From the IMG/VR virus record IMGVR_UViG_3300031463_000547, positions 2,031 through 66,030 of that record: DNA of 64,000 nucleotides, one strand, 5' to 3'. The position numbers and the translations under genes are program-made. This DNA is from a virus. Its lineage: Duplodnaviria > Caudoviricetes. This document shows, piece after piece, positions 15,422 through 47,556 of this stretch. Every line of letters starts with the position of its first letter. Positions within the stretch are counted from its first letter, which is position 1. The notes under the pieces are model-generated. The model worked only from the letters and a program-made list of their open reading frames with translations. It made no database searches and was not told where the DNA came from.

Positions 15422-15487
15422 GGCCGAGAGGACCAACCTTAAGCCGAGGTACTCCCAGAAATGGGGGCGCTTCGGCTTTTGTCGTTT
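15422..15487 (+). terminator. conserved antiterminator-hairpin/terminator cassette, copy 1
   Basis: GGCCGAGAGGACCAACCTTA AGCCGAGG...CTTCGGCT TTTGTCGTTT, upstream of terS. Confidence 0.8.
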
Positions 15488-15499
15488 ACAGTGCTTTCC

Positions 15500-16018
15500 A
15501 TGTTCAGACGCAAGGGGCCAGTCAAATACGAGCGACCCGGCAAGCTCACCGATGAACAGCGTGAGCTGGTATTGAACTGCCTTGCGTGTCGAATGGCAGG
15601 CCAACGCATTATCGAATACCTCCAAGCGGAGTTTGGGGTAACCGTCAAACATCCCGCGATATGCTACTACAAGCGCGTCTATGCTGCTGAGATTGCCGCT
15701 CGTCGAGAGCGGTATCTCGCGGAATCGAAGGTCATCAACCTGCCATTTGTAGCCCAAGCTGATCGATTGGCGGAATACAGCCGCCACGTCAGCATCGAAT
15801 TGAGGCGGGGGCGACTACGGGAGGCCCGTGAGGCGCTGCGGTCCATAGCTGAGGAGACGGGCGAACTGAGACAAACCAGAGATGTCAACATCAATGCCAG
15901 TCAACGAACAACTGCTGAGCTGCTTGAAATTGTGCGCGGCGCATTGGGGGGAACTGACGCCGATACAGCAGGAGGCGGCGGCGGAGCTGGCGAGGAGATA
16001 CCAGGCCCAGCGGGATAA
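15500..16018 (+). CDS. terS: terminase small subunit (DUF2280-like)
   Basis: KLTDEQRELVLNCLA HTH-like N-terminus; overlaps the terL start. Confidence 0.65.
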   Translation: MFRRKGPVKYERPGKLTDEQRELVLNCLACRMAGQRIIEYLQAEFGVTVKHPAICYYKRVYAAEIAARRERYLAESKVINLPFVAQADRLAEYSRHVSIELRRGRLREAREALRSIAEETGELRQTRDVNINASQRTTAELLEIVRGALGGTDADTAGGGGGAGEEIPGPAG

Positions 16019-17630
16019 GGCCAGTCTGAGTCTATCTGACTGGGTGTATCGATATTCGGCTCTGAAGGTCGGTGCGAATTGGCTGCCGTTCAGTTTTGAC
16101 GGCCATGAATATCTGCGGGAGCTATATTGTGACCCGCAGCCAATAGTGATCCTTGAAAAAGCGGCTCAGATGGGCGCATCGATCGTGGCGATCAACCGGG
16201 CTCTGCATTTTGTGGATACGACGGGCGGAACGGTGATCTACTTTTTTCCGACGGACACGGACGTGGCGGATTTCTCGAACACGCGCGTCAAGCCGATGAT
16301 CGAGCGGTGCGAATATCTGTCGGACCAGTGCAACGACATCAACAATGTGCATGTTCGGCAGATCGGCATGGGTCTGCTGTATTTCCGTGGGATGTTTGCC
16401 AAAGGGCGGACGAAGAGCATCCCTGCAGATTTCACCATCTTCGATGAGTTGGACGAGGCGAAGCCGGAGCACAAAGCGCAGGCACTGGAACGAATGAGTC
16501 ACAGTGCATGGGGGTGGCGAATGGAACTATCGACGCCTACCATTCCGGACTACGGCATAGACATCGAATTCGCACAATCCGATCAGCGCTACTGGCATGT
16601 CGCATGCGGCTGCCGCGAGGGTGTCGTGCTGGAGGATGTTTTCCCCGAATGTATCGGGGTTCGGCACGAGGGCACGGATCGTGAGGAGGTGTTCCTGCGG
16701 TGTCCGCGGTGTGGCAAGATTCGGCTGAACCCGTGCGAATATGCAACGGTCGGCGAGTATCGGGGTTGGATTCCGAAGCGGCCTGAAAATGCGAGGCATG
16801 CCCGCGGTTATCATCTCTCGCAACTGTTCTCGACAACACCAGCGTGCAGTCCGGCGGCGATCTGGTATAAGTTCCGGCACACTCGCGACATTCCGGAGTT
16901 TTATAACTCGGTGTTGGGCGTGCCGTATGCCGGCGATAGAATGCCGTTGACTCTGGATGTGCTCGCGAAGTGCCACGGCGATTGGGGATTAGCTCAGACT
17001 GGCACTCGATGCTACATCGGAATCGACCAGGGCGCAGACAACTATGTGATTGTCAAGCAGCGGGATCCGAACACGGGGGCCGGGAAGGTGATTAACGCTG
17101 TGGTTGTCGAGGGTCCGAACCCGTGGCCAGCAACGGTAGAGATATGCAAGCTCTACCCGGATGCCGCGATAGTCGTCGATGCGCTGCCTGAAAAAACCCA
17201 AGCGCGCGCTCTCTGTCAGCTATTTCCAGGACGGGCGTATATGTGCTACTACACCGACACACAAAAGGACGCGGTCGTAGTAGATGATGATCCGAATGAG
17301 CCAGACGCCGGAATGAAGGTTACCGTCCATCGGACAGAGACCCTAGACAGAGTCATAGAAATGCTGCTGTGGACGGCGCAGGGACGCCCCGACGGGATCA
17401 TCCTGCCCAACGCACAATTACCGATATGCAAGGAGATCAAAGACCATTTGGCAGCATTAGCGAAGATCCGGCGCCGCAGGGTAGTCAACATCGGCGGCGT
17501 ACAGCAGGAAACCGGGGAAGTGGAATGGGTCTATGTGCATATCAAACCCGATCACTTCGCCCATGCGCTGAACTATGCAACGATAGCGGAATCCGTGCCT
17601 GTCAACGTTGGATGGGCGGGATTTATGTAG
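15882..17630 (+). CDS. terL: terminase large subunit, GpA-type
   Basis: KAAQMGAS, FDELDEA, STPT, SDQRYW, CPRCG, GIDQG, DHFAHALNY. Confidence 0.9.
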   Translation: MSTSMPVNEQLLSCLKLCAAHWGELTPIQQEAAAELARRYQAQRDKASLSLSDWVYRYSALKVGANWLPFSFDGHEYLRELYCDPQPIVILEKAAQMGASIVAINRALHFVDTTGGTVIYFFPTDTDVADFSNTRVKPMIERCEYLSDQCNDINNVHVRQIGMGLLYFRGMFAKGRTKSIPADFTIFDELDEAKPEHKAQALERMSHSAWGWRMELSTPTIPDYGIDIEFAQSDQRYWHVACGCREGVVLEDVFPECIGVRHEGTDREEVFLRCPRCGKIRLNPCEYATVGEYRGWIPKRPENARHARGYHLSQLFSTTPACSPAAIWYKFRHTRDIPEFYNSVLGVPYAGDRMPLTLDVLAKCHGDWGLAQTGTRCYIGIDQGADNYVIVKQRDPNTGAGKVINAVVVEGPNPWPATVEICKLYPDAAIVVDALPEKTQARALCQLFPGRAYMCYYTDTQKDAVVVDDDPNEPDAGMKVTVHRTETLDRVIEMLLWTAQGRPDGIILPNAQLPICKEIKDHLAALAKIRRRRVVNIGGVQQETGEVEWVYVHIKPDHFAHALNYATIAESVPVNVGWAGFM

Positions 17631-17639
17631 GAGGACAAT

Positions 17640-18005
17640 ATGGCAACAGCGATTGTTGGTGGAGGGGAACGTTATGTAGGCAAAACGGCCGTCTCGCTGG
17701 AGGGAGAGACGGTTGTATCGGTACGCGTGCCCGCGGGCGCGAACGCTGCCCGGATCAATCCGCAACTATTCAGCAGCTCTGACGGAATGGTGCTGCTGGC
17801 GCGAGACGCCGAACCGACTCTGGGTGCGAACGAGCTGATGATGGGCAGTGGTGATGTGTGCATGGATTGCTATCGCCCTGGCACAGAGATACAGTTCCGG
17901 TTGGTTGATTTCATGACTGGGGCAGATATGGCAGGGGGCGAGCACGATTACATAGTTGTCGTGTTCTACACCAATATCGCGGGCCGCAGAAGTGGAGGTG
18001 CTTAA
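17640..18005 (+). CDS. hypothetical protein, possibly virion-associated
   Basis: RBS AGGAGG; beta-rich. Confidence 0.65.
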   Translation: MATAIVGGGERYVGKTAVSLEGETVVSVRVPAGANAARINPQLFSSSDGMVLLARDAEPTLGANELMMGSGDVCMDCYRPGTEIQFRLVDFMTGADMAGGEHDYIVVVFYTNIAGRRSGGA

Positions 18006-18548
18006 ATGCCAGAAGGAAATGCTATGGGTTTCAGGGGTTCAATTATTGCCAATGCGACGCTGGAAGGCGCCGTGGAGATTGCAAGGGCTGAGATAGCCGA
18101 AGCTCCGGTGGCTGGTGATGCTACTGGTGAGATAACCGGTGAGGTCTCTATTGCTGAAGCAAATATTGCAGGTGATGCCAATATCGCGGCTATCGAGACC
18201 GCTACATTCAATGCCCCAGCGCCAATTTTGCGCTGGGAAACGTATAGTGGCGAGTTCGATGATGAGGGCGATCAGGTTGCATTCAGCGAGGCGGCAGCCG
18301 TGATAGAGATCGAAAACCTCTCCGAGACCAATCTCATTGCGTTAGATACCTCCCCTGATCCGCTGACGCCGCCATCAATACCGACTCCGCCCAGCACGCC
18401 AGGCGCGTGGACGCAGGAGTCAAATTCCGTCCCCGCGTTCGCAACGCTGCGGCTGGAGGGCACGATCGGTTCGCTGGCATTCTGCGCGCCTGCAGGCACG
18501 ACTGTCGCTGTGCGTGTGCGGGCGGGATTTACGACGGAGGCACAGTGA
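18006..18548 (+). CDS. hypothetical acidic Ala-rich protein
   Basis: RBS GGAGGT; operon position. Confidence 0.65.
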   Translation: MPEGNAMGFRGSIIANATLEGAVEIARAEIAEAPVAGDATGEITGEVSIAEANIAGDANIAAIETATFNAPAPILRWETYSGEFDDEGDQVAFSEAAAVIEIENLSETNLIALDTSPDPLTPPSIPTPPSTPGAWTQESNSVPAFATLRLEGTIGSLAFCAPAGTTVAVRVRAGFTTEAQ

Positions 18549-19045
18549 TGGGAGACAGAATCGCGTTGACCAAACCGAGCGAACCCGCTGGTGCAGTTGC
18601 GAGGGCGGTCGCACCAGTGTGGGCGATACTGGGGGCGACTGTTCAGCAGACAGTGAAATTGGCGGCTGCTGGCGTGACCAACCGCGTCAACATCACGTTG
18701 ATAGGGAACTGGGTTCCGTCCGCATCATCGGCGAAGGATTTCACAGACCAGCCATTCGTGCTTGCCTACCCATCCGGCGTCCTGATCGTCTGGTGTACGT
18801 TTAGCGATAACCAGGCGGCCATTAGGATCGGCGATCCCGATTCAACAGCGGGAGAGTTCGTTTTGAAACAGGGGATGAATGTGTTTCCCTACCTGATGAC
18901 TGATACGGAAATCGAAATTGCGGGCGTCACGATCCCAGCAAATACCGATGTTACCGATCCGCTGGTTGGCTATCTGGCAACACCTGCATTCAGCGGTGCG
19001 CAGGAGATCATCATCAGCGCACCGGGGATAAACGTCAATGCGTGA
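18548..19045 (+). CDS. hypothetical beta-rich protein
   Basis: TGATG coupling at 18548; RBS GGAGG. Confidence 0.65.
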   Translation: MGDRIALTKPSEPAGAVARAVAPVWAILGATVQQTVKLAAAGVTNRVNITLIGNWVPSASSAKDFTDQPFVLAYPSGVLIVWCTFSDNQAAIRIGDPDSTAGEFVLKQGMNVFPYLMTDTEIEIAGVTIPANTDVTDPLVGYLATPAFSGAQEIIISAPGINVNA

Positions 19046-20954: not shown

Positions 20955-20957
20955 GAC

Positions 20958-24014: not shown

Positions 24015-24148
24015 GGAAGCCGACAATGTATAGTTCTCGCGCAGAACGCCGGCGGCAAGCTCGGCCCCAATGGCGAGCAGCTAGGCGAGTGATAAAGAAA
24101 ATCAACCGACACAGGCGTTTGGCAGGATTGCCACCGATCAGGCCGTAG
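24011..24148 (+). CDS. 45-aa Arg-rich basic peptide
   Basis: ATGA-coupled to the MuF-like gene; MRKPTMYSSRAERRRQARPQWRAARRVIKKINRHRRLAGLPPIRP; ends just before the next RBS. Confidence 0.45.
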   Translation: MRKPTMYSSRAERRRQARPQWRAARRVIKKINRHRRLAGLPPIRP

Positions 24149-24163
24149 GGCAATAGGAGAGAT

Positions 24164-27100: not shown

Positions 27101-27493
27101 ATCCATGCTGTAGCGCAGATGTTGGCTGACCAAGGATTGGGTGATAACAGTGTGCTGTTTGCAAGCAGAACTCCAGATGGCAGGCCTATCAGCCAGAAGC
27201 AGATGACTCGGTTTCAGGCTCGGTTTCAGATGGACCCAAATTGCCGGTTTGCAGTATTGGCCGAACCGCAGGCTGTTGGTAGAAATTTGCAAGCCGCCGA
27301 TGTTGTGATTTATCTCGATGTGCCTCCCAACGCAGCGTCTCGAAAGCAGCGGCGTGGGCGGGCTTGGAGAACTGGGCGGAGGGGCGACGTTACCGAAATA
27401 CAGCTCTGGACAGACCAGAGTTCGTTTGACGTAGCGCGCAAACTCAACGTTGCTCGGACCGCCGGAATGCTGGAGGCCGTCAGCGGCAAGTAG
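24164..27493 (+). CDS. large SF2 (SNF2-like) helicase protein 1
   Basis: LEVGGGKT, DEAH, MTGT, GRNLQAAD, QRRGRAWRTG; N-terminal RWITIHP domain. Confidence 0.85.
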   Translation: MKATPFGLTLERPESSTPVIVGDFGFVFTPLFKSKAEKEWWEDAKVGDERWITIHPSEDSDNYRHVKVRLRPGGKWRIVAGGTNLEHQEIVPKHRLTDEERAEYDRRKAAREKARQERLAAQERLAEIRKQHEHAIAEAAGISTELPEEAKAEIERRADKLKLEGSQRSAFIEKQQAKAQQAHEKWVSQAVRSLVAQSRSVVFAEKPEEELRTIHQAHEEAEAQKRRLAERLFEARLAAAEKGEPAGLTEEAKPEKGLDRAKSEPEEEPVYRAQSMPVIAAVDMAQKLAALAKESEHKLREARRDLPKLAEDRISGTEALEQFTISAEAADPAAAERELLKEREDRLRSQLNSTLVSIADATYRADDTGYDRFGKKQFDVARAQVTGALDAITGISKHFLGSSFMDRPIVEALGIDGAAALAAGEIIRRRGKDEAARILAEIEAYQSEASHEIAETALSRHNELMEAKRTLQDMAKKPLVDDDGNLIAENLSETADCVALYGELTADALRHVGTALGSLQASASLMRLLSDAIEGGKKLDSLHIALRDPDDAMRIDRALRLHGRFRLEEVEGGTSAMVISPSALSRYLKEAKAEREVDEQVRSLQEGNQQVDVHKTPTGWRSEYVDEDGEKHKFVWKEGQARALQFAMLNSTPNGGGAVIDLEVGGGKTAFAFGYFGTLKERGWIGEGRRALYVAPRESLASQAIDDCHKFTTYTVDRIGGGSRSHEDEIRSRYAGKGFISVVTAQTLAADVKALYNMGIDPSKFFSELGYDAIDLDEAHTLVSGLSGAGATGRSVRKLRLKYNVAMTGTLATDAVSQPFDMVRWAVGNKVDSRAKILRKYGEVGQGTEAWQDAVNADVRAQIDRYTFHGSGNIEAKLHSVEHKVNLSHQQRAALRDADAADKKRRQQAMALARRKGRTSLDSVTKLKLADERNREVYEILHNRDWRTNPRLQEISRLIAGNPDKKFIIIGDTAQSLSGIHAVAQMLADQGLGDNSVLFASRTPDGRPISQKQMTRFQARFQMDPNCRFAVLAEPQAVGRNLQAADVVIYLDVPPNAASRKQRRGRAWRTGRRGDVTEIQLWTDQSSFDVARKLNVARTAGMLEAVSGK

Positions 27494-27512
27494 CGCGCCT
27501 AAAGGGCGTGTT

Positions 27513-28091
27513 ATGAACTTATGTGGGCGTGAGTTGGAGGGGCAATTGCAGGCATTGATGCTAGATGGCAGGATAGGGCGCGAGGACGCAGTCAACAGGC
27601 TGATGGAGCTCAATCTGGATCGCGCGCTCAGGATTGCTCGGCGTTACGCAGCCAACAATCATGGTCTACGTGAGGAATTGGAGGGAGCTGCCATCGATGG
27701 CCTGATACGAGCGGCCGAGCTTTTCGATCCTAATCGAGGTGTGCGATTCTGGACGTATGCGGAACGGAAGGTGCGCAGTTGCATACGAGGATGTTTCCGC
27801 AAACGATTGGCAGTGCCAATAGGTTTGCTAATTGACGATGGATTGGCGTATCCATACGACGAACTTCCGACTTTCAACGATGAGCAGGTTCGGCGATTGG
27901 CGGCTAGAATGCTGTACGAGGTGGGCATACGGCCGCATCCTGCGGCAGTGAGTGCTCTGTTCGGTGATATGACCAAGCGCGAGGCGGCGCGGGCTATCGG
28001 AATGAACTATGACGTATTCCGTCGGCGACTGAAGTTGATATACCGGACTAAAACGGCGATACGGTTTCTCAAATATGTGGAGACGAACTGA
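27513..28091 (+). CDS. sigma70-family sigma factor-like protein
   Basis: Region 2 (EELEGAAIDGLIRAAELFDPNRGVRFWTYA) and a C-terminal HTH (MTKREAARAIGM). Confidence 0.8.
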   Translation: MNLCGRELEGQLQALMLDGRIGREDAVNRLMELNLDRALRIARRYAANNHGLREELEGAAIDGLIRAAELFDPNRGVRFWTYAERKVRSCIRGCFRKRLAVPIGLLIDDGLAYPYDELPTFNDEQVRRLAARMLYEVGIRPHPAAVSALFGDMTKREAARAIGMNYDVFRRRLKLIYRTKTAIRFLKYVETN

Positions 28092-30753: not shown

Positions 30754-30759
30754 GTAACA

Positions 30760-32430
30760 ATGGGCACCGTTTTTGTAATGCCGCTGTCAAAGGGTGCTGC
30801 GTTCGACAGGCTGGCTGAGGAAGTGGCGCGTGAGTATGAAGCGAAGGGCTACTCCAGAGAGCATGCGTTGGAGATAGGCAGGGCAGTCGCGGGCAAAATT
30901 GCGCGGAAGAAATGTAAAGCCGGACGGCGACGGCGGCGAAAGAGTTTGGCGCCGATGCTGATTCTGCCCTTGGCGAAAGGTGGATGGCCGGGGATGCCAC
31001 GATATAAAGCAATCAAGGCAAAGTATCCGAACGTCATTCTGCTATTTCGTCGGGGTAGCCATTGGATGGCATTCGGCTCAGACGGCAAGTTGGTTAAACA
31101 AGTGTATGGTGCACGTATCGTACCTCAGAAGGACGTAGATCGTGTTATTGATACCTTGCAAAACCAGGGCCATCAAGTGGCACTTTGTGGTCTGATTGCC
31201 AGCAAGCCATTGGCGAAAGGTTTGGAGAAGCCGGTTAATGTCAGGCAAAGGACTAATACCGACTTAGCGGTTTCCTCGCCATACAATGCGAACTTCATCA
31301 AAGACGTAAAGCGGTTGCGAGGTGCCAAGTGGGATGTTGAAAATCGTGTTTGGGTCGTTCCGGCCGAGCATAAGGAAAAATTATTCAAACTGCTAGCTAC
31401 ACACTACAAGTGGAATCCAGAAGACCACCCCCGCGTACCAGCAGGAGTTCCAGAAGGGGGACAATTCGCAGAAAAAGGCACTACGATATTCCGGCCCCCA
31501 TATAGTGATGCATTCACAGCTTGGATGCACAAGGAAAAGATGGGATACTGGGATGCATCCGCTAAGGGTTGGCGGGTTGCGAAGGAAGATGCCGATACCG
31601 TGCGAGCCAAAATTGAGGAGATGTTCCCACAGGTGCAACGCCAAGGCGTTAAGTACGTTTCCGTAAGCATGCCGAGTTATAATGAGCGTGCCATTGCCGA
31701 GATAAAGCAAATACCAGGCCGTCAATACGATCCGACTAGCCGCACATGGTCTGTGCCAGAAACCGAAGCTGATAAGGCCAAGGCTATTGTGGAGAAGTAC
31801 TTTTCGCCAAAAGCCACGGGTACGCCTACGTCGCAGGGATTGCCTGAAGGTCACAAGTACATCAGAAGGGGAGAAGGTTATGGTGGCTATCCATTTAGAG
31901 TCGGCGAGACGATCAAAGACGATGGGAAGTACTGGACGGTTGTGTCAGCCAGCAAGCAGTATTTCCGCGAGGATGGTATGTCGTTCGGTGTTGGCGATGA
32001 ATCTGGCTATGTCTACACCGCTGAAGTTCGGCCTGCTACCGAGGAAGAAGCAGCACCATTGAAGGAGCGCGAAGAGCAAAAACGGCGCTATGTGGAGCTA
32101 AAGGAAGAGCTATCATCGATATTCAAAAAGATTTTCGATGGTGGTAAGGATGCTACACCTAAAGTGCAACCCGAAGGCGAGGACATAGACATGATCGGTA
32201 ACCCCCGCAACATTTATGGGGGCGGTCGGTGGTTTGTGATTGGCAAGAACCGCTTATGGGCAATCGAAAACAATGGTGCAGATGGCGATGATTGGAGTCG
32301 GAACAACGTCCGCACTGGAGGGGCAGGAGCAATCGGTCGATATATACCGTATACTGCAAAAATGGCAAAGCGCATCAGAGAGGCCACCACTGAGGCAAAG
32401 GCATTAAAAGCGAAGTTTGCCGGAGATTAA
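30760..32430 (+). CDS. polyvalent protein: MutS domain I-like plus three HARP/DUF5710-like repeats
   Basis: YKAIKAKYPNVILLFRRG; PYNANFIKDVKRLRGAKWDVENRVWVVP, PYSDAF...WDASAKGWRV, SYNERAIAEIKQIPGRQYDPTSRTWSVP. Confidence 0.7.
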   Translation: MGTVFVMPLSKGAAFDRLAEEVAREYEAKGYSREHALEIGRAVAGKIARKKCKAGRRRRRKSLAPMLILPLAKGGWPGMPRYKAIKAKYPNVILLFRRGSHWMAFGSDGKLVKQVYGARIVPQKDVDRVIDTLQNQGHQVALCGLIASKPLAKGLEKPVNVRQRTNTDLAVSSPYNANFIKDVKRLRGAKWDVENRVWVVPAEHKEKLFKLLATHYKWNPEDHPRVPAGVPEGGQFAEKGTTIFRPPYSDAFTAWMHKEKMGYWDASAKGWRVAKEDADTVRAKIEEMFPQVQRQGVKYVSVSMPSYNERAIAEIKQIPGRQYDPTSRTWSVPETEADKAKAIVEKYFSPKATGTPTSQGLPEGHKYIRRGEGYGGYPFRVGETIKDDGKYWTVVSASKQYFREDGMSFGVGDESGYVYTAEVRPATEEEAAPLKEREEQKRRYVELKEELSSIFKKIFDGGKDATPKVQPEGEDIDMIGNPRNIYGGGRWFVIGKNRLWAIENNGADGDDWSRNNVRTGGAGAIGRYIPYTAKMAKRIREATTEAKALKAKFAGD

Positions 32431-33356: not shown

Positions 33357-33359
33357 TAA

Positions 33360-33448
33360 ACCCGCTGGAAGCAACGTAGATTTCCGCAGAAATCAGGGCG
33401 GGCATACAGGACAAACCTGCATAGGCGCGCACGCTGCAAACAGCGGGT
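33360..33448 (+). ncRNA. candidate multi-stem RNA in the leader of cassette copy 2
   Basis: ACCCGCTG/CAGCGGGT and GCAACGT/ACGCTGC enclose the hairpins GATTTC/GAAATC and CAGG-ACAAA-CCTG. Confidence 0.45.
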
Positions 33449-33485
33449 CGATTGAAGTATAGCTCACAGTTGATATGCTGTCAAT

Positions 33486-33548
33486 GGCCGAGAGGACATA
33501 CCTCAAGCCGAAGATGGTCGATGGACCGTCTTCGGCTTTCGTAGTTTT
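33486..33548 (+). terminator. conserved antiterminator-hairpin/terminator cassette, copy 2
   Basis: GGCCGAGAGGACATACCTCA AGCCGAAGATGGTC-GATG-GACCGTCTTCGGCT TTCGTAGTTTT. Confidence 0.8.
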
Positions 33549-33558
33549 AGAGAAGTCA

Positions 33559-36500
33559 ATGGCGAAAATCTGTACTCATCACAGGCAAAACATCATACAT
33601 ATCGCGGGAACTTGGGAAACAAACGGCAAACCAGAACTGCTGCGCGTCTGTAGCGGCTGTGGTCGGCTGTGGCGCGGCAGGTTGGTCAAGGGGTTCTTTG
33701 TCATCGACCTCGCTAAAGCCGTACCGCTGAAACCGGGCCAACGGTGGATTACAGTGCATCCTAATGGTGAAGATGAGAAGGGCATACCAGTTCTGATTCA
33801 GGAAAACCCGGATGGAACTGCCCATGTAATTGGCGGCGCCGGTGGCAAGCTCAACTATCTGCGGCTAAATCGAATCAAGAGCCCCGAAGAATGGAAGCGC
33901 GCGGCAGAGGAACGAACTAAGAAACAACGCAAAGAGGCAATGAGACAGCGGCTGTCTCAATTGTCGGCGGCAGAGCGGGAAAAGGAAGAAGAGGTTCAGT
34001 CGGACATCAAGGCCTTGCGGGAGATGAAACAGGCTGAATATGTGCAGACTGTCATGGAAGCCCACGGTATTGCACCTGAGGAATGGAAGCTGCCAGAAAA
34101 AGTGCTTGCGGCGATGCCACCGAAAAGCCGAGCTATGGCTGAGCGCCGCCATTTGCGCAAGATGGTTAAGGTGGCTGACAAGCTCGTCGATGAGGCGCGC
34201 GAAGACATCTTGGCAGCCCGTGACAAGGTGATTCAGGATGCCATTGGCGATCTGCCGGGCAGCGATATTATGCCAGAACCTGAGCCAAGCGGAAGGGGCT
34301 TGGGATATGCGACGGCGGTATCGCAGAAGGCTGCGGAAAACGGTCTCACAACTCGTCAAACTGAAATTGAGAAACATGACATTTCATGGCGGCATTTTCT
34401 GGATGCGGCAGATGGCAGTGTGATTCGCGCAGCAGAACTCGAAGCGCGCGTAGAAGCCCTGCGCGGGGCATTGGCAGCCGTGCGGGAACCAGTTCGGCAG
34501 GCACAGAAGATGGGATTGCTGGATGTCAGCATTGCTCCCAAAGCGCCCGCCGTGGAAGACGTCAGCAAGGTACTGCTGGCTCAGAAGAAGTACAGAGAAG
34601 CCGAGCGCAAACTTACCGAAACCAGCCAGGAGATTAATGAACGTGGAGTGCCTAAGGCGGCATTCGTTGTGGCTAAGGAAATCGGCGAAATAACGGATGA
34701 GCAGGCTAAGGACGCACTTGCCGATGAACTCGAAGAGCAGACGCGTCGGGTTACCGCATCCAAACTCCTAGACGCCGCGTACGAGCAAATAGAGGCGGCG
34801 CCGTTGCGAGAGCACGTCGGAGTCGGTCACTACGATGCGATCAACAATGCCTCTCTATCTGCAACTCACGAGCCGTGTCCCATAGATCGAGTCACTGCCG
34901 ATATTTTGGGGCCAGCGGCTGCCGCAGAATTGCTGGTGCAGCATTGGCGCGAAACGATGTCGGCAGAGGAACTGGACGCACTGCGCACAGCAATTGCCAA
35001 CTACCATGTCAAAAGCCAGGTGGCCATAGCCGAAAAGGCGTTGGATGACTACAATGCGGCAAAACGGGAAATCGACGCTATCGAAGTGCCTGTGATAACT
35101 GGCGCAGATTCACTACTGGCAGCGCAGGTGGCCTGTGATACAAAGGCCGAGAAGTTAATGGGGGCTCGACGTACATTGGGCACGGCGCTCGGCAAATTAG
35201 AGGGGATGGCCGCCTTAGTCAACGCATTTGAAGAGGGGCCGATCAACGAGCTACGAGTGTCGTTGGGCGCAATATCGAATCAGCAGGCGGTCGCACAGGC
35301 ACGGGCGATGGGATTGCAGACACCAGAACTACTTGATAATGAGGATACGTTCGATTACCGCATCGACAGTGACGGTGTAAATAAGTTCTTGACCGTAACA
35401 GCCGAGGGAATGGCAAAGTTGATTGCCAAAAAAGCTGACCCTGAGTTTGCAGCGAAATCGCGAACGGCAATGGAGATCAAACGGGGAGACCATGACGTTG
35501 ATGGATGGCTACCCGCAGGATTCGTCGCCCGACCTGCCACGACGTTTGATGATCCCGACGAACGCGCGCTGATGGTCAGTGAGCCACTACGACTATCAGA
35601 GGGAATGGATGCTGCACAGGTCAGAGCGGCAGTCGAGGACTATATAGGCGGTCGATTGGCTGATGGCCAGGACCCTGAGAGTCTGCGGCAGGACCTGCTA
35701 TCGGCTGAGTTTGTATCAGCGTATGTGCCGAAGGCGTTGCAAGGAGAAGGCAGCGGCCTGTATTATAATGCACTGCGCGAACTGGGATTCTTCTCATATA
35801 ACCAAGTTGAAAACCTGACACGCGACGAATTGGAGAAGCGTGCAGACGAGATCGTTGCCAAACGCCGTCGAGAACTTGGAGAAGACGCGAAGTTGGCGGC
35901 GCTTAACTCGCAGAGCGTACCACTGAACGACGAAACCTATGAGGCGGTTCATCGTGCGTTGGCGAAGTTGCCTCAGGCCGTCGTGGTCGGCAAGGGCATT
36001 GGAGAGCTTACTGCACAGGACAAGAATACACTACGCGATTTCTTCTGGAAGCACATGACTACCGAAAAGCGCCCAATAGCGGCTGAAACCAAACGCGAAC
36101 GAGCAGAAGCCGCAGCACGCGCCGAAGAAGTGGTCGGGCATCAGGTCAACATCTTTGGTGAGATGGAGGAAGTCAAGCGCGGGCCATCCGAGGCAGACAT
36201 TGCTGGTCCGGAAGAAACTGCATGGGATCGATATGTCAAGGCGATGGGTTCGACCGACCGAGCCTATGAGTCGATTCTAGATGTGGTGCGTGGTTCGTTC
36301 ATGGGCGAATTCGCGCGCGAACTGGGCAGGGTAACTGGAACTGAGTTCAAAAGTGGGACACGGCGGATTGCCAATTGGGATCGGCACGTCTTGGGGCTGA
36401 TTCCGCCAGAAAAACAAGCCAGATTGTTGGGCGAACGCGCAATCGAGGAAAAGCGTCGGCAGGCTCAGGTTGCAACGCGCAGCGGAGGCAAATTTGCAAA

Positions 36501-38319: not shown

Positions 38320-38329
38320 GAGGTGCAAG

Positions 38330-38632
38330 ATGCCAAAGGCGAGAGCGAATACAAATGCCATACGGAAACTGCTAGTAGACTGCGAAAAGCGACGCTACGA
38401 TCTGGCTAAACGCACAGATGCTATTCGCCATGCAGCATTGGCCATCGAGAAAGCAGCGATAGCCAAGCAACGGCGCCTGCGCAAGCAACTTCAGTCTGCC
38501 ACCGGAGATCGCCGCAGAATCCTAGAGGCGAACTACTTGGCGGAGGTGGACGCCCAACAAAAGGCGGCAAAAGCGTATTCGTTGGCATGTCACACGTTGG
38601 CGAAACTCGGAAAGCTCGAAATTGCAGTCTGA
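38330..38632 (+). CDS. hypothetical basic helical protein
   Basis: RBS AGGAGGT. Confidence 0.7.
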   Translation: MPKARANTNAIRKLLVDCEKRRYDLAKRTDAIRHAALAIEKAAIAKQRRLRKQLQSATGDRRRILEANYLAEVDAQQKAAKAYSLACHTLAKLGKLEIAV

Positions 38633-38662
38633 TTTATGCGATGTGACTGCGATAAGTAGAGT
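38624..38662 (+). promoter_or_regulatory. putative late promoter 2 with dyad GCAGTC-N15-GACTGC and -10 TAGAGT
   Basis: Matches 14677-14715 (GCAGTCTGATT...TGACTGCGATAAGTAGA); 11 nt upstream of the protease ATG. Confidence 0.7.
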
Positions 38663-38673
38663 AGGGTGAGCGT

Positions 38674-40719: not shown

Positions 40720-40745
40720 TTGCATAGGGACAACTGAATAGTTAC

Positions 40746-40809
40746 GGCCGAGAGGACCAACCACGAGCCGAAGCATTTCCAGAGATGGGAGCGCTTCGGC
40801 TTTTTGTTT
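40746..40809 (+). terminator. conserved antiterminator-hairpin/terminator cassette, copy 3
   Basis: GGCCGAGAGGACCAACCACG AGCCGAAGC...GCTTCGGCT TTTTGTTT, upstream of the capsid gene. Confidence 0.8.
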
Positions 40810-40834
40810 GCACGACAAAGGAGGAAAACCACTA

Positions 40835-42304
40835 ATGCTGAACCTTGGTTCATTTGTAGGGATACAGGACTACCCTGCTGGATCGGCGATCCAAGGGATG
40901 ATGTCCAATGAAGACGTGGCGGTGTTGGCGAAGGCGCTAGAAACAGGCAGCGGTATCGTGGCTGCGGACGCAACCGGCGGCCAGGCACTGCGTGTACAAA
41001 GTCTTGAGAACACTCTAAAGATTGTGGCCCCGCAACAGAAAAATCTGCGGCTATGGCCACGACTGAGTAAGGAACCGGTCCAATCAACAACCGTTGAATT
41101 CACCCGACAGGATACTGCATATGGCGAGGGGTTGGGTGATGGATTCATCGGAGAAATTGCGGAAGCCAGCGTTTCCGACGAGACCTACATCCGCAAGGTA
41201 GCGTTGGTGAAGTTCATAGGTGCGCAGGGGCAGGTATCACTGGCGCAGCAGTTGGTCAACAACATTGTCAATCCCATCCTTGCTCAGCAGGTGAGCGCAA
41301 AGACTACGGCAGTGCTGCTCAAGACCGAGCATGCACTTGTGTATGGCGATTCCGCCCTGAATCCGCTCTCCTATGACGGATTCATCGCGCAGATATTGAA
41401 GGCAGCATGGGCCGACCCCAGCGGGTTGGGCAATCCGGTTAACGGCATTGTGATTGACTGGGAGGGCAACCCGCCAGACCAGGCGATGATTGAGGACGCA
41501 GCACAGCGTGTGCAGAACCGCTACGGAACTCTGGACTATGCACTGATGGGCACGGATGTCAAGAGCAGTCTGACGAAGGCGCTCTTCCCAGGCCAGTATA
41601 TCCCCCAACCGCCGAATGCAGAGGGCCGCTATGGAACCCCATTCCGGATTTACGAATCGTCATATGGGCCTGTAGAGTTGGAGGGCAGTGTATTTGTGCG
41701 TTCATTCGGCTGCTCACAGACGGCGGTCGGTGGGTCGAGCGCGCCAGCAGCAACGGATGCAGTCACAGTAGCGGTTGCATCAGACTCATCGTCAAAGTTG
41801 GACAAGGGGACATACTACTACTGGGTGACGATGTGCCGGAGGGGGTTCTCGTCAACTCCGCTCGCCGTAACAGGCGAAACGACGTCCGTTAGCCAGAAAA
41901 TCACCCTGACTGTTGCCGACGCCAAGTTCGCGCCGGGAGGCACTCCGAACGCGGAGTATATTTCGATCTATCGGTCGCAGATAAACGACATCACGACAGC
42001 GACCCTGATCGCACGAGTGCCACGCGGTTATACGTATGATGGCACGAGCTGCAGAGCCGATGGGCCGAACACGGTGTATGTGGACGTCAACCAGAACCGA
42101 GACAACTGCGGGGAAATGATCGGATTCACTTGGGATACGAACCAGGTGCTGACGTTCAAGCAGCTTGCTCCGCCGATGAAGCTCGATTTGGCGATCGTGG
42201 GGACGTATACCCCGTTCATGTGTCTCCTGTATGGCACACCGGTCGTCTATGCGCCGTCGAAGTTGGTGTATGTGAAGAACATCGGCAAATTGCCTCGTGG
42301 TTAG
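40835..42304 (+). CDS. major capsid protein (Twort/SPO1-like, with inserted beta-domain)
   Basis: KALETG...GGQALRVQSLE, EHALVYGDS...YDG, VIDWEG, QLAPPMKLDLA, LLYGTPVVYAPSK..YVKNI; RBS AAGGAGG. Confidence 0.9.
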   Translation: MLNLGSFVGIQDYPAGSAIQGMMSNEDVAVLAKALETGSGIVAADATGGQALRVQSLENTLKIVAPQQKNLRLWPRLSKEPVQSTTVEFTRQDTAYGEGLGDGFIGEIAEASVSDETYIRKVALVKFIGAQGQVSLAQQLVNNIVNPILAQQVSAKTTAVLLKTEHALVYGDSALNPLSYDGFIAQILKAAWADPSGLGNPVNGIVIDWEGNPPDQAMIEDAAQRVQNRYGTLDYALMGTDVKSSLTKALFPGQYIPQPPNAEGRYGTPFRIYESSYGPVELEGSVFVRSFGCSQTAVGGSSAPAATDAVTVAVASDSSSKLDKGTYYYWVTMCRRGFSSTPLAVTGETTSVSQKITLTVADAKFAPGGTPNAEYISIYRSQINDITTATLIARVPRGYTYDGTSCRADGPNTVYVDVNQNRDNCGEMIGFTWDTNQVLTFKQLAPPMKLDLAIVGTYTPFMCLLYGTPVVYAPSKLVYVKNIGKLPRG

Positions 42305-42317
42305 AAAGGAGCATCGC

Positions 42318-43163
42318 ATGAACGCCCCCAGTGTACATCGCAAGAAGGATTTGTTGCAGGCATTGGATATTAGCCTGCCACCGATAGTGATCCCCTTGGT
42401 TAAGGGGAACGTGTCGGCGGCAGCCGATAAGGTCGGGTTCGTGCTACCGGACAAACTGACGCTGTCGAAGATCGCAGGCCGGCTCGCTACAGGCGGCGCC
42501 GGCACAAACACCACGAAAACGGTGGTGGACATGCTCATCGATGGTGTGTCGGTCCTGAGAGAGCGATTGGCTCACGTGCTGGTATATACGGCCGGTGATC
42601 AGACATATACGGACCAGACTGACGCGGCTTGGACTGTTTCCGGTAGCGATGCATTCGAGTTCTGCGCAGCGACTGGTGACCGACTCTACATCGGTCACCA
42701 TAAGCCATTCAGATCGCTGTGGTATAGCTCGGCGGTGGCCGGCAATACTGGCGCCGCAACGTTTAAATACAGTCGTGCTGGCGATACAACGCCGGCTGGC
42801 TCATTCAGCGGCCTAACAAATGGCACTCTTGGATCAAAACCATTCGATCAGAGTGGACTGATTACATGGACAATGCCGAGTAATTGGGCACCCATTACCA
42901 TCAACGGAATATCCGCCTATTGGATGTCCGTGGCATTGGCTGCGACAATTACAACGGCGCCGCAGGCCGCAGAAATCTCGATTGCAGACGGCCTCATCCA
43001 GATTGCAAAGGGCGACGGTAGTGCCGTAGTGACAGATATTGTCACACTAGCCAAACCATTGGTGCTGCGCGCGGGTGAGACGATCAGCTTGGATATTAAG
43101 GCCGTACCGGAAACGACGCCACCGACCGATCTTTCGGTTAGCTTAGGACCGTCACTGCTTTAG
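42318..43163 (+). CDS. putative capsid decoration protein
   Basis: Follows the capsid gene; RBS AAGGAG; beta-rich. Confidence 0.55.
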   Translation: MNAPSVHRKKDLLQALDISLPPIVIPLVKGNVSAAADKVGFVLPDKLTLSKIAGRLATGGAGTNTTKTVVDMLIDGVSVLRERLAHVLVYTAGDQTYTDQTDAAWTVSGSDAFEFCAATGDRLYIGHHKPFRSLWYSSAVAGNTGAATFKYSRAGDTTPAGSFSGLTNGTLGSKPFDQSGLITWTMPSNWAPITINGISAYWMSVALAATITTAPQAAEISIADGLIQIAKGDGSAVVTDIVTLAKPLVLRAGETISLDIKAVPETTPPTDLSVSLGPSLL

Positions 43164-43183
43164 GTAACAAGGAGGGGCATAAC

Positions 43184-43672
43184 ATGGAACTCATCATTCG
43201 TGTTTGCATTCCATCGGCGGCAGGCGCAGCTATTTACACGCCCGCAGGCAAAATTGAATTTGATGCAAACGGTGTGGCCGAACTGCCTGCAGGTTGGACG
43301 CAGTATCTGCGCGGCTATCCAGACCTAACAGTCTATGATGGACAATCGCCGTCATCTCCGGCTCCAGAGACAGAAATAGAATCAGAATCGGGGCCGGAGT
43401 TTTCTGAGCCGCCGAACGAAAACACCGCTGTCCATACAGATTTCGAGAAGCTCCGAGTGTTTGTAGATGGCGATCAGGTCTGCGCGATGCGTGGGGATGA
43501 TGGTCCGGCGGTGTTTGTAGATCGGGCAGAGGGCGTAACTGGGGACGTAACGGAGGCCGAACGCGAGGCAGTACTGGCAAAATGGCATGCCACACATGCC
43601 GAGGCTGATGTTGGTTCGCACAAACCACGGACACGAAAGCAGCGAGCGAAAGCGAAGCGAGCTTCTGCATAA
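43184..43672 (+). CDS. hypothetical protein
   Basis: RBS AAGGAGG; ORF ends before a terminator. Confidence 0.7.
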   Translation: MELIIRVCIPSAAGAAIYTPAGKIEFDANGVAELPAGWTQYLRGYPDLTVYDGQSPSSPAPETEIESESGPEFSEPPNENTAVHTDFEKLRVFVDGDQVCAMRGDDGPAVFVDRAEGVTGDVTEAEREAVLAKWHATHAEADVGSHKPRTRKQRAKAKRASA

Positions 43673-43700
43673 CAGAGCTACAAGTGAAACAAGAAAGGCG

Positions 43701-43736
43701 GGGGCGGGTGGATCGTGCTCGCCCCCATTTTAGTTT
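43701..43736 (+). terminator. intrinsic terminator after the capsid module, lacking the conserved leader hairpin
   Basis: GGGGCGGG...CTCGCCCC stem followed by ATTTTAGTTT. Confidence 0.6.
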
Positions 43737-43750
43737 GATGGATAGATCCG

Positions 43751-44545
43751 ATGGATGTGACTGCAGTACGCGATGAATTGATCGGGCTGGATGCCGCGCC
43801 ATATATGACTCGGTTGGGAACGACGGAAACAGCTATCAACCAAAAGCTTGCCACTTCGATTGCACAGGCACGCGCGCGCGTCCAACGCGAACTGCATTTG
43901 ACCTTGGACACTACGGTCATAAAATCCAATCCGGATGCTGGAGTACAATTCGATGTCGAGGAAGAGCCATACGACTACTTTACCAGCGACTATCGGCATT
44001 TTGGTTGGTTGAAACTCCGGCGTAGGCCGGTGCAGTCGGTAGAACGGGTTCGGCTGATGTTGGGGCCGCAGATGACCATCTTCACCTATCCGCGTGAGTG
44101 GATTCGAGTACGGCACAAGCAGGCACATATCCAGATCGTGCCGACTCCAGGCGCGGCATTCCAGAACCTAGTGATGGCCAATGGGCTATATTATCTACCC
44201 TATCTGAGTGCGGCTCCGATCTTCAATGAATACCCACAACTAATAGCCGTGGACTATACGGCAGGTATCGGGGACGCGCTGGCAAGCGACGAGTATGCAG
44301 ACTTAGCATTGCAGATTGCCAGGTTGGCAGCACGGGAGGTTTTATTGAGGTTGGATAATGCTGTCAGTCCCGGCGTGCAGTCCAGAAGCATATCCGAGGA
44401 CGGCGCAAGTGAATCGACAAGCTACGCGCGCGGACAGACCAAAACACTTTTCGGCGCCCATATCGATCAGATAGAAGCGGATTGGGAACGGTTCAAGTTG
44501 ATGTGGCAGGGCCATAATACAGGGCCGATCTTTACAGTGGTATGA
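43751..44545 (+). CDS. head-tail adaptor (neck) protein
   Basis: PYDY...FGWLKLRRRPVQSVE, PQLIAVDYTAG, SRSISEDGASES. Confidence 0.7.
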   Translation: MDVTAVRDELIGLDAAPYMTRLGTTETAINQKLATSIAQARARVQRELHLTLDTTVIKSNPDAGVQFDVEEEPYDYFTSDYRHFGWLKLRRRPVQSVERVRLMLGPQMTIFTYPREWIRVRHKQAHIQIVPTPGAAFQNLVMANGLYYLPYLSAAPIFNEYPQLIAVDYTAGIGDALASDEYADLALQIARLAAREVLLRLDNAVSPGVQSRSISEDGASESTSYARGQTKTLFGAHIDQIEADWERFKLMWQGHNTGPIFTVV

Positions 44546-45207
44546 ACGATTTCGAGGTCGCAGTGCACAGGGAGTTTATCCATCGGCGCGGAGAGTCGAT
44601 CCGGTGGTATCGCAGTATGCCGTGTGCATGCTTAGACGTTATGGGCGGCACGCATGACAGACAGTGCTCGATCTGTGGGGGCATAGGCTATCGCTATGAA
44701 CGGCAGAATCCAACCAGCGATAAGGCCCTGGTTCGACAGGTGGACGAGGAAAGGCAATTCCGAAGCTATGGGCAATTGCAGGTCGGCAACATAACGATCA
44801 CCACAATGCCGGATGAATTGCCCATAGGTGAAGGAGATTTAATAGACCTTGTCGAGCGACGGTTCCGGCATTCGGAGGTCATTAACCATACAGGGCTAAC
44901 CGATGCTGTGCACTGGCAGCCGGTTGTCGAGCTGATAGAGGTGCGGAGCCTGACAAAAACATATGCCATTGGTGACGATGAAGGGCAGGTTGGCATTGCC
45001 GAAGATGGCGGTGGAATCATATGGCATTGCGAGGAAGGCGCCCCTGTGTTGCCCCCAGCAGGAGAGCGGCTGACGGTGGTATACGGATGGTGTCCGCGCT
45101 ATATCGTGATGCCAGGGATGGTAACGACCAGACGGTCAGTGGGCGGAACCAGCATGCCGCAGCGCGTCGCCGCGAAGCTATGGAACCGCGATGAAGTAAA
45201 ACAATAA
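44542..45207 (+). CDS. head closure/neck protein
   Basis: GESIRWYRSMPCAC...CSICGGIGY pattern; position after the adaptor. Confidence 0.65.
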   Translation: MNDFEVAVHREFIHRRGESIRWYRSMPCACLDVMGGTHDRQCSICGGIGYRYERQNPTSDKALVRQVDEERQFRSYGQLQVGNITITTMPDELPIGEGDLIDLVERRFRHSEVINHTGLTDAVHWQPVVELIEVRSLTKTYAIGDDEGQVGIAEDGGGIIWHCEEGAPVLPPAGERLTVVYGWCPRYIVMPGMVTTRRSVGGTSMPQRVAAKLWNRDEVKQ

Positions 45208-45220
45208 CGAGGTGAATACG

Positions 45221-46027
45221 ATGCCTGCAATACAGTTGATTTCTCCTGACGATATGATTGCGGTGACCGACGCCATCGGTCAGATTCGGACAGCGCTGGA
45301 ATCCGCCGTAGACACGTCTGACGACTGGGCGTCGCAGATACTGACCACGATCTTGGGCATAACGGATCCTAATTCGTTCTATGTTGGTCAGGACCTGCGT
45401 CTGCCAGCGTGGGACCTGAAGGAGTTGTTTACGAGTGACGCCGTGACACGTATGCTACTGCAGGGATTTATTGCGGCGCTGAATCAGCACTGTAGCCAGC
45501 GAGGTCTGGTGGTCAGTTCCAATATACGCGATATAAACTCCTTTGCCACCTTCTTCAACGCCGCCGGCAATTTCTACGATGTGCTTTATAGCCCGGCATT
45601 CGCGGCAGCCTATGCTGCGGTATTTTCACCTACCCTTTCGGCGGCGAACTGCTATTCGCCGGAGATCAAACAGTCCGGCCAGGGAGTGGCGATGGGAAAG
45701 TGGGACTACAATGGTGGCAACCCGGTATTCACAGATGGTGCGGCAGTAGACGCGGCCTATCTGGGGGCGGTTCCGAAACTCAAGGTGACGAGTCAGATTA
45801 CGAAAGCCGGGCAAGACGATATTGTCGTTACAGTAACCGGCGTAGACCATACAGGTGCATCCGGTACGCATTGGACATATACAGCATCGTCAGACATCGC
45901 GCCCGGCAATTATGATTTTGCGGAAGCAGACCAAAAGTGGATTCGCAATGTAGCGGCGAGCAACGGCATCGCCGTAGAGGGCGCCAGTAGCGGCATATGT
46001 TATGTAGAGGGCTGGGAACCGCGCTAG
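45221..46027 (+). CDS. hypothetical virion protein
   Basis: RBS GAGGTG; located in the neck module. Confidence 0.65.
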   Translation: MPAIQLISPDDMIAVTDAIGQIRTALESAVDTSDDWASQILTTILGITDPNSFYVGQDLRLPAWDLKELFTSDAVTRMLLQGFIAALNQHCSQRGLVVSSNIRDINSFATFFNAAGNFYDVLYSPAFAAAYAAVFSPTLSAANCYSPEIKQSGQGVAMGKWDYNGGNPVFTDGAAVDAAYLGAVPKLKVTSQITKAGQDDIVVTVTGVDHTGASGTHWTYTASSDIAPGNYDFAEADQKWIRNVAASNGIAVEGASSGICYVEGWEPR

Positions 46028-46702
46028 ATGGGAGCGATATTAGAATTCGACGGAGTTCAGGAGTTCTTGGATGCGATAGCCGGTATACGGCAACGAATGC
46101 TCAATCTGCGCAAGTTCTTGCGCCAAGTCGCGATCTATCTGCGAGCGGGGTTTGCTGAGAATTTCAATGCCGAAGGTCGGCCTGAACATTGGGCTCCACT
46201 ATCTCCATCGACGATTGCTGAGAAGCGGCGGTTATTCGAAGCCGGGTTGATCCGCGGCAGGCGGCGAGGAATCCGAGTTAGATTGGGGCCGAGTGGCGAA
46301 CAGCGTGGCGAACTGCCTGGAATCCTGATACGCACAGGCGCGCTCAAGGATTCCGTAGCACGGTCTCATACGCGCGGAAACATCGAACGGATTAGCGGTG
46401 ATGGCACGCTACTCGAAGTGGGTACCAGCCTGCCATATGCTGACGTGCATGATCGGGGCGGCCAAAGCAGCTATACGATCAGTCCAAGCCAAAAGGGCTT
46501 TTTGGCATGGTTCGGCATCGACCGCAAGACCGGTCAGCCGGGCTGGATATTTACCAGGCGACCCGTAAATCATCCTCCGATGCCAAGACGCAGTTTCTTG
46601 GTCATTACTGAGGATGTATGGCAGCAAATTCAGCATGCGGCTGCTGCATTGGTGGACATAGATGGCGATACTGCAGATAACCAACATTCTGAATCCGCGT
46701 GA
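46028..46702 (+). CDS. virion morphogenesis/tail completion protein (Mu gpG-like)
   Basis: NFNAEGRPEHWAPLSPST, LIRTGALKDS, VGTSLPYADVH, MPRRSFL. Confidence 0.8.
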   Translation: MGAILEFDGVQEFLDAIAGIRQRMLNLRKFLRQVAIYLRAGFAENFNAEGRPEHWAPLSPSTIAEKRRLFEAGLIRGRRRGIRVRLGPSGEQRGELPGILIRTGALKDSVARSHTRGNIERISGDGTLLEVGTSLPYADVHDRGGQSSYTISPSQKGFLAWFGIDRKTGQPGWIFTRRPVNHPPMPRRSFLVITEDVWQQIQHAAAALVDIDGDTADNQHSESA

Positions 46703-47447
46703 TGGAGTTACCGTAGACATTGAACTGGACCGCGCGCCGATTGGGCAACTCTCAGTGCTGGTCAGTCCAGTGCCCGATGAATATGGGACTACCGCAGCAA
46801 TCAACCAGATAGCAGCGCAGCGCTATCGCGTAACGTTGCCATATTCGAATGACGAGGCGGCTCCGCGGCTGCTGTATTTCACGGCGCATGATGACCAAGG
46901 CTACTCGACATATCGGGATTCTCAGGGCTATATTCAGGGCCAAGCGGCGGCGTGGATCGGCAAAACCACAGAGGATGAGCTTACCGACATAATGAAGCGG
47001 CTACGGCGCCGGATCGTCGATAACAAGGTAGGGATCGAAGCCAGACTACGTGAGATCGAGCCGAATATCACTCTCAAGCAGATCGTTTGGGGCATGGGCG
47101 AGAAGATCGAGTCATACCCATCCATTGAGATCAATCAAGCGGCGCTGCGAGAGACATATGAGGGGACGGACTATTTCCGACTCGTCAGTGCAGAGGCTCA
47201 GCTATTTGGTTACATCGTTCATCAGATTCCGACCATTGAAGCCGAGTTGGTGAGCGCCTTCGGGCGTGCGGTGCAGAAGATTTTGAACCAAAAAAGCTAT
47301 GAGCAAATGACATTGGCCAACGGACAGGTGCTCACGCGCTGCCAAGCACAGAATCTGGCATTCGACAATAACATCTGGGATGGACAGCGTTTCGTTTCGA
47401 GTTGGTCTCTGGACTGGAGTGGAGAGTTCGGCGAAACGCTGCCGTAA
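46662..47447 (+). CDS. putative tail terminator
   Basis: Position before the tail tube; YPSIEI motif. Confidence 0.5.
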   Translation: MAILQITNILNPRDGVTVDIELDRAPIGQLSVLVSPVPDEYGTTAAINQIAAQRYRVTLPYSNDEAAPRLLYFTAHDDQGYSTYRDSQGYIQGQAAAWIGKTTEDELTDIMKRLRRRIVDNKVGIEARLREIEPNITLKQIVWGMGEKIESYPSIEINQAALRETYEGTDYFRLVSAEAQLFGYIVHQIPTIEAELVSAFGRAVQKILNQKSYEQMTLANGQVLTRCQAQNLAFDNNIWDGQRFVSSWSLDWSGEFGETLP

Positions 47448-47477
47448 CAGATATTGAGTCACATCAAGAAGGCGAGC

Positions 47478-47538
47478 GGCTGAAAGGACATACCTTGAGC
47501 CGAGCAGACCATTAGGTCAGCTCGGCTCTTTTTGCTTT
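47478..47538 (+). terminator. conserved antiterminator-hairpin/terminator cassette, copy 4
   Basis: GGCTGAAAGGACATACCTTG AGCCGAGCAGACC-ATTA-GGTCAGCTCGGCT CTTTTTGCTTT, upstream of the tail tube gene. Confidence 0.8.
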
Positions 47539-47556
47539 GGCGAAAGGAGAACTTCG

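Follow-up and report, generated by a model that had tools for sequence, protein, structure and literature searches.

What does a short RNA hairpin do when it recurs at four module junctions of a phage late region, each time overlapping a terminator? The question is raised by a window of 64,000 nucleotides (nt) that comprises bases 2031-66030 of the 66,030-b provirus record IMGVR_UViG_3300031463_000547, derived from a temperate phage. The window carries four intergenic cassettes, each composed, from 5' to 3', of a 26-nt box, a GC-rich hairpin and a U-rich tail. We tentatively read the cassette as a conditional terminator that is gated through its box, following a logic similar to that of the ribonucleic antiterminator (RAT) systems. 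Other readings are weighed below together with the evidence that bears on them.

Four cassettes in the virion region

The first-pass annotation of this DNA described four shared elements in front of terS, a helicase gene, the capsid gene, and the tail tube gene. The pattern GGCYGARAGGACMWACCWYRAGCCGA is found at all four places, starting at 15422, 33486, 40746, and 47478, always on the + strand and with 0 mismatches, and this description can therefore be retained. None of 100 shuffled sequences matched (0/100), a comparison which is partly circular because the pattern was built from these same copies. Throughout the whole record the pattern matches 4 times in forward and 0 times in reverse orientation. 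Scored with a covariance model of the box, the four copies obtain 42.3-45.7 bits and the next best match in the window 13.0 bits.

The consensus of the box is GGC-YGA-RAGG-ACNWA-CCWY-RA-GCC-GA, and its design is that of a small hairpin in which GGC/GCC forms the outer stem, followed by 4 bp of inner stem and the 5-nt loop AC--A. The base of the terminator hairpin is AGCCGA/UCGGCU in every copy, followed by the U-rich tail. The cassettes occupy four of the few sizeable intergenic gaps in the virion region. All of them are located between cistrons, at a distance of 2-130 nt from the upstream stop codon, and 17-32 nt separate the U tract from the next start codon.

The box of copy 1 (15422-15447, +; 44.5 bits) begins 2 nt after the stop codon of an open reading frame (ORF) with a PF18894 metallopeptidase-like match. 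It has the loop ACCAA and a G-U first inner pair, and is continued by the terminator and U-rich tail at 15441-15489 (+; hairpin 15441-15478), after which putative terS starts at 15500. In copy 2, the box (33486-33511, +; 45.7 bits) has the loop ACATA and the inner stem GAGG/CCTC; the terminator and U-rich tail extend over 33505-33550 (+; hairpin 33505-33538, 15 pairs), and the helicase gene starts at 33559. Copy 3, with a box at 40746-40771 (+; 43.4 bits), shares the loop ACCAA and contains an A.A mismatch in the inner stem. Its terminator and U tract at 40765-40812 (+; hairpin 40765-40802) precede the major capsid gene, which starts at 40835. The box of copy 4 (47478-47503, +; 42.3 bits; GGCTGAAAGG...) has the loop ACATA and the inner stem AAGG/CCTT, with the terminator and U tract at 47497-47540 (+; hairpin 47497-47528) and the tail tube gene starting at 47557.

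The genes next to the cassettes are those named previously. The 1586-amino-acid (aa) helicase behind copy 2 matches PHROG 62, the major head protein behind copy 3 matches PHROG 752, the tail tube protein behind copy 4 matches PF18906, and terL lies directly downstream of putative terS. The last label is putative, based on the position before terL and on weak helix-turn-helix/DUF2280 matches.

Competing folds and constraint on the box

Five copies were compared in the following, the four from the window and one from a related metagenomic phage contig (L023), all of them related and from one phage lineage. When folded alone, the box forms a hairpin closed by GGC/GCC in 5/5 copies, with energies of -6.9 to -11.6 kcal/mol (z -2.3 to -4.1), and only 0-5 of 200 shuffled sequences fold as well. 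Box position 20 is the first base of the terminator stem in every copy, and thus the GCC at positions 22-24 is common to both hairpins. Positions 20-24 are needed by both folds, the 3' strand of the small hairpin being at the same time the base of the terminator 5' arm.

Minimum-energy folds of the full element (-27.9 to -32.2 kcal/mol) are dominated by the terminator hairpin. The outer GGC/GCC stem is present in none of them, and the inner stem in copies 2 and 4 only. Forcing the small hairpin costs 6.7, 6.0, 11.4, and 4.3 kcal/mol in copies 1-4 and 5.9 kcal/mol in L023; the terminator stem is then shortened and parted from the U tract by 5 unpaired bases. One fold excludes the other, with the terminator favoured by 4.3-11.4 kcal/mol, and the layout is, as proposed in the first-pass annotation, that of a hairpin in competition with a terminator. 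Because the hairpin fold costs only this much, a ligand of ordinary affinity could flip the outcome. All five elements have a GC-rich stem-loop with 6-8 U in the first 10 nt of the tail, and from these features they are predicted to act as intrinsic terminators. According to the folding model, termination would be the default state when no ligand is bound. Pairing of the 5' GGCYGA with the terminator 3' arm was also considered, and was rejected as 8-13 kcal/mol worse than the minimum-energy fold.

Sequence conservation differs sharply between the parts of the cassette. Pairwise identity of the 26-nt boxes is 85% (range 77-88%), compared with 54% for the terminator interiors, which is about random (48 +/- 7% when shuffled). 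This difference indicates that what is preserved in the box is its sequence, and in the interior only the pairing. The interior is 18-24 nt long and variable, while the junction of box and stem is fixed in every copy. Invariant positions make up 19/26 of the box and include the unpaired G5, A6, and A21 as well as the loop bases A11, C12, and A15. Judged by these alignments, the box is under sequence selection and is more than a passenger of duplicated terminators.

The opposite possibility, that plain terminators were recently duplicated and the box is a functionless passenger, is improbable in our estimate. It gains something from copies 1 and 3, whose interiors are 75% alike and indicate duplication, and from the lack of significant covariation described below. 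Interiors of the remaining pairs are only 40-62% alike and have diverged to random while the boxes stay at 77-88%, and the box is kept in a phage whose proteins are only 48-70% identical to those in the window. The previous statement that interiors differ freely between copies holds for most pairs and fails for copies 1 and 3.

A diverged strain, found in two public runs from different studies, provides another view of the same constraint. Over the 118 nt that precede copy 4, it is set apart by 6 substitutions and a 3-nt deletion, while within copy 4 there are 0 changes in the box or stems and 1 in the terminator loop; the complete list for the diverged-strain contig at copy 4 comprises 7 differences. 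With the adjacent contig counted in (31 differences over 317 nt), a number of changes as small as that within the element has a Poisson probability of roughly p = 0.03, a value which is uncorrected and mixes coding and non-coding sequence. The pattern is no more than suggestive of copy 4 having been spared from change.

No Rfam 15 family matches in the window at the gathering score. At E <= 10, two matches were obtained over the five element loci, neither of them on an element, in line with the novelty proposed by the first-pass annotation.

We favour, with due reserve, the following mechanism. The cassette would be a cis-acting RNA module on the late transcript, in which the terminator forms by default and transcription stops at the junction. 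Such a stop, in the lysogen or during early infection for instance, would insulate the modules for packaging, helicase, capsid, and tail. A trans-acting factor would recognise the invariant unpaired and loop bases of the box and hold the small hairpin, withholding box positions 20-24 from the terminator. With 5 unpaired bases left before the U tract, RNA polymerase would then read through. The action would be local, with one site per terminator. From the observed copies, sequence constraint, overlap, and energetics we infer that transcripts end at the U tracts, that a factor binds, and that its binding causes the readthrough.

Readthrough, transcript ends and the search for a factor

A conserved promoter between the U tract and the next start codon was not seen at any cassette. 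Because the 17-32 nt gaps are too short for a promoter, putative terS, capsid, and tube genes would be expressible by readthrough only. There is likewise no sigma-70-like site common to the cassette copies. Only copy 2 has a sigma-70-like promoter upstream, and its -10 A is lost in the variant strain; on these grounds the possibility that the cassettes are independent small RNA genes was rejected. A promoter spanning the hairpin was also rejected, as the spacing is variable.

Two copies of a promoter-like element, GCAGTCTGATT ... GACTGCGATAAGTAGA, were read by eye upstream of cassettes. The upstream copy (14667-14715, +) immediately precedes ORF 14740-14979, at 0.7 kb upstream of copy 1, and the second (38624-38662, +) immediately precedes the protease-scaffold gene, at 2.1 kb upstream of copy 3. 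By their positions, this pair would define two late transcription units, each running into a cassette. Between the element at ~14690 and copy 1 there are only two ORFs, 14740-14979 and 14976-15419. The ORF that ends just before the upstream copy (14218-14676, +) has by eye the look of a RusA-type Holliday-junction resolvase, with acidic D-x-D-N and DD motifs, and has no Pfam or PHROG matches at E <= 0.01.

A further promoter was observed on the opposite strand next to copy 2. At 33456-33484 (- strand) there is a near-consensus sigma-70-like promoter, TTGACA-17-TATACT (11/12), pointing leftwards. It sits in the unusually long 130-nt spacer before copy 2, and the changes at 33455 and 33475 in the variant strain spare its hexamers. 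It may drive an antisense or leftward transcript.

Several observations weigh against a gated terminator. The first-pass annotation pointed to covariation of the inner stem, and this part of it is not supported. In the five sequences, a set that is related and too small for a firm test, 5/7 of the proposed box pairs never vary. One variable inner pair appears as G-C, G-U (2/5 copies), or A-U, the last being the sole double change, in copy 4, and another inner pair is broken by the A.A mismatch of copy 3, of which the first-pass annotation makes no mention. With 288/500 column shuffles reaching the observed value, the covariation lacks significance. Copies 3, 4, and L023 differ in the inner part of their stand-alone box fold, and since fold details differ between copies, a single defined box structure is not established. 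The five copies are not independent, because all come from one phage lineage.

Comparison with more distant genomes also weighs against it. Relatives of the capsid protein were found at 0 loci when a single protein was used and, by alignment, at 5 loci in viral contigs and 1 in genome contigs. None of the relatives that could be read (25-39% identical) carries the box, and two of them have a different, terminator-free spacer before the capsid gene.

Profile searches were equally negative. In six frames of the 66-kb phage record, where host proteins are outside the scope, CAT_RBD (PF03123) and the ANTAR domain gave 0 matches at E <= 1. The same was obtained for Phage_antitermQ (PF06530) and NusG (PF02357), with other Q families and N not searched by accession. 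Antiterminator families were also missing from Pfam results on 50 window ORFs and from PHROG results on 10 plus 10 ORFs. Known RNA-binding antiterminator domains are thus absent from the record among the families searched, and the earlier remark that no BglG-like or NusG-like gene is recognisable agrees with these results. A candidate factor, ORF 14740-14979, is without support from Pfam or PHROG, where it has no match; an Atlas search returned scores of <= 0.81 and a weak DUF2292 lead at 0.76.

The last point of this kind is a fifth, strong terminator-like hairpin at 43700-43726 (+), with 11 pairs, 8 of them G-C, and the tail ATTTTAGTTT. Flanked by ORFs 43184-43672 and 43751-44545, it carries no box and shows no sequence relationship with the four cassettes. 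Readthrough at this place needs another explanation, as the terminator there is boxless, and the former claim that each late terminator carries the hairpin does not stand.

This boxless terminator in the same operon indicates that the phage tolerates ungated terminators, and it thereby fits an alternative in which the cassettes are constitutive partial terminators. The box would then be a common 3'-end element that binds a host or phage stability or processing factor and has no part in readthrough, and transcripts ending at the four sites would have the same last ~60 nt. The terminators are canonical, and the box is sequence-constrained and always directly 5' of the stem, a position typical of protein-bound 3'-terminal regions such as RNAs derived from 3' untranslated regions and the targets of terminator-binding proteins. 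We nevertheless regard this alternative as unlikely. Partial stops before the capsid and tube, the two most abundant virion proteins, with no promoter of their own, suit stoichiometry poorly, and a mere binding site would not need the rigid overlap of box and stem. It is also disfavoured by the lack of any antisense partner of the element longer than 10 nt in the window, a result on which an RNA-RNA partner for the box was rejected as well.

Copies in other genomes and module boundaries

A scan of 241 million metagenome records with the pattern revealed 8 loci, of which one, L023, is a true copy; the remaining seven, all GC-rich, lack a U tract. So few and heterogeneous matches led us to reject a host repeat of the repetitive extragenic palindrome type. 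In L023 the box, the stem base, and the U tract are kept, while the interior and its loop are new. Its box differs at 3-4 positions, though the neighbouring proteins are only 70% and 48% identical to those of the window. Protein homology to the window ends exactly where the L023 cassette is placed, i.e. at a synteny breakpoint (n=1). The gene behind it (628-1368, +) encodes a Peptidase_C1, a papain-family cysteine protease (E 1.4e-17), which the window lacks, just as it lacks a cassette at the equivalent junction. The Peptidase_C1 gene of L023 is followed by a small protein with a signal-peptide-like N-terminus, also without a counterpart in the window.

Its position at a breakpoint makes L023 fit a portable module-boundary cassette as well as a switch. 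In such a case, the box and stem base would serve as short homology for module-swapping recombination, or as the DNA site of a late regulator, and the RNA hairpin would be incidental. The gene behind the L023 cassette that has no equivalent in the window, the location of elements at module junctions only, and the sigma factor encoded by the phage itself are consistent with this proposal, and PeSL cassettes are described, in excerpts of one paper, as mediating such shuffling (PMC4122927). The single synteny break is an anecdote, however, and recombination or gene conversion would homogenise the interiors too, yet these are about random. The terminator is not accompanied by a conserved promoter half, and the distance from box to U tract varies with the 18-24 nt interior and suits no promoter geometry. 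In addition, all copies are on the transcribed strand and 2/5 have G-U at the variable pair, a pairing possible only in RNA; both features point weakly to a function in RNA rather than DNA. We consider a boundary cassette or DNA site to have a low probability. The readings are not all exclusive, as a gated terminator can also be a recombination point.

The sigma-like gene mentioned above (27450-28091, +) is located between cassette copies 1 and 2. In its 213-aa product, Pfam recognises a Sigma70_r2 domain above the cut-off (E 6.4e-8), and PHROG 351 (RNA polymerase sigma factor) is matched as well. The gene shares this part of the head region with those of the large proteins of the helicase, GHKL, and MutS_I/HARP kinds. 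One of these, a 556-aa protein (30760-32430, +), combines MutS domain I (E 6.7e-7) with a HARP domain (E 4.9e-12) and is unusual for a head-region gene set.

Other collections contributed no further copy. Four exact-pattern scans of IMG/VR viral contigs (0, 2, 3, and 1 loci) gave six loci that are coding-like or GC-rich and have no U tract, and these were set aside as chance matches. Two of the seven further metagenome loci are box-like sequences with an AGCCGA/TCGGCT hairpin, also without a U tract, in intergenic DNA of high-GC bacterial contigs, at 2678-2739 (- strand) of L021 before an alcohol dehydrogenase gene, with 7/9 free box positions, and at 1863-1902 (+) of L016 after a gene converging with an aquaporin gene; both are probably due to chance, with use of the motif by the host as the less likely reading. 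Among cultured phages, blastn of copy 1 returned 5 records, in all of which 21 nt match within tail genes (E = 6), capsid matches were all below 30% identity, and megablast of 10 kb found none.

As for the phage itself, an M78 peptidase gene was detected by Pfam scan at the left end of the window. The record bases before the window hold a large serine recombinase-like ORF of 591 aa (1-1776 of L031, - strand), identified by eye, which forms the extreme left end of the record with no host flank. Replication and recombination genes extend to ~14.4 kb. Beyond this point there is a single virion region on the + strand, with terL, portal, two helicases of the superfamily 2 type together with other large proteins, protease-scaffold, major head protein, tail tube, and tail genes. 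The window contains 0 tRNA genes.

Relation to known antitermination systems

The closest parallel is provided by the RAT attenuators of BglG, SacY, and LicT. As outlined in excerpts of two papers, a short protein-binding hairpin overlaps the terminator 5' arm, the terminator is the stabler fold, and binding prevents its formation (PMC3575810, PMC5393181). In the cassette, the 3' part of the small hairpin is likewise the terminator 5' arm, and the terminator is again stabler. Unlike RAT systems, the record in which the cassettes occur has no CAT_RBD protein, and they are found at four inter-cistronic sites of the late region, in contrast to one 5' leader. The cassette hairpin is also shorter, with 24 nt and one internal loop. 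The element is a terminator-overlapping cis element with a new motif, which works most like a RAT/terminator pair and does not belong to the RAT class with regard to its CAT partner and placement.

The lambdoid systems of PR'-tR' with Q, N with nut, and put of HK022 have in common with the cassettes that virions can be made only once terminators within or before the late genes of the phage are overridden. Q, N/nut, and put modify RNA polymerase once near the promoter and then act processively. The cassettes differ in having the conserved site repeated directly at each of four terminators, and in the record neither a Phage_antitermQ nor a NusG domain was found. Excerpts from a recent report offer BrrG/Q21-like processive antitermination as an example (bioRxiv 10.1101/2024.11.20.624540).

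PeSL cassettes of T4-type phages are, as portrayed in excerpts of two studies, small stem-loop regulatory cassettes between genes, at indel or replacement breakpoints (PMC4122927, PMC2839356). The likeness consists in a small conserved stem-loop cassette repeated between genes and, for one copy (L023, n=1), in the location at a synteny breakpoint. PeSLs join a terminator to an early promoter and are found in the hyperplastic regions of lytic phage genomes. The cassettes described here have no promoter half, are conserved in a part that precedes the terminator on the 5' side and overlaps with it, and occupy late-module junctions of a temperate phage.

The targets of ANTAR proteins consist of two tandem small hairpins, whereas the box is a single hairpin with a 5-nt loop and the record has no ANTAR domain. 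In ANTAR systems, too, a protein-bound RNA structure excludes an overlapping terminator, as excerpts of one article put it (PMC3369936). In a 2025 review of RNA-binding antiterminators, the words phage, prophage, and bacteriophage occur 0 times (PMC12591593). The open-access literature on antiterminator hairpins in prophage late operons yielded none describing such a system, and a search of open-access papers for 12-mers of the box gave, among the matches listed, only papers with phage-unrelated titles.

To our knowledge, nearly all that is known of antitermination in phage late genes comes from processive systems, which are loaded a single time close to the promoter. A repeated RNA site next to terminators, if true, would represent another kind of design, one that is local and modular and can be passed on along with gene modules. 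Gating of these terminators would also imply an undescribed RNA-binding regulator. In its full form, the proposal is that a temperate phage governs its whole virion programme by local, site-by-site antitermination, in which one phage or host protein outside the known antiterminator families binds a 24-nt hairpin at four late-module junctions, portable as a cassette. We put this forward as a somewhat doubtful, though conceivable, extension of the observations. Were the box to mark 3' ends or points of recombination instead, the cassette would still be a compact portable terminator module, useful for annotation and engineering. Should the local action be true, it would bring RAT-like logic into a virus, distinct from the processive systems of N, Q, and put.

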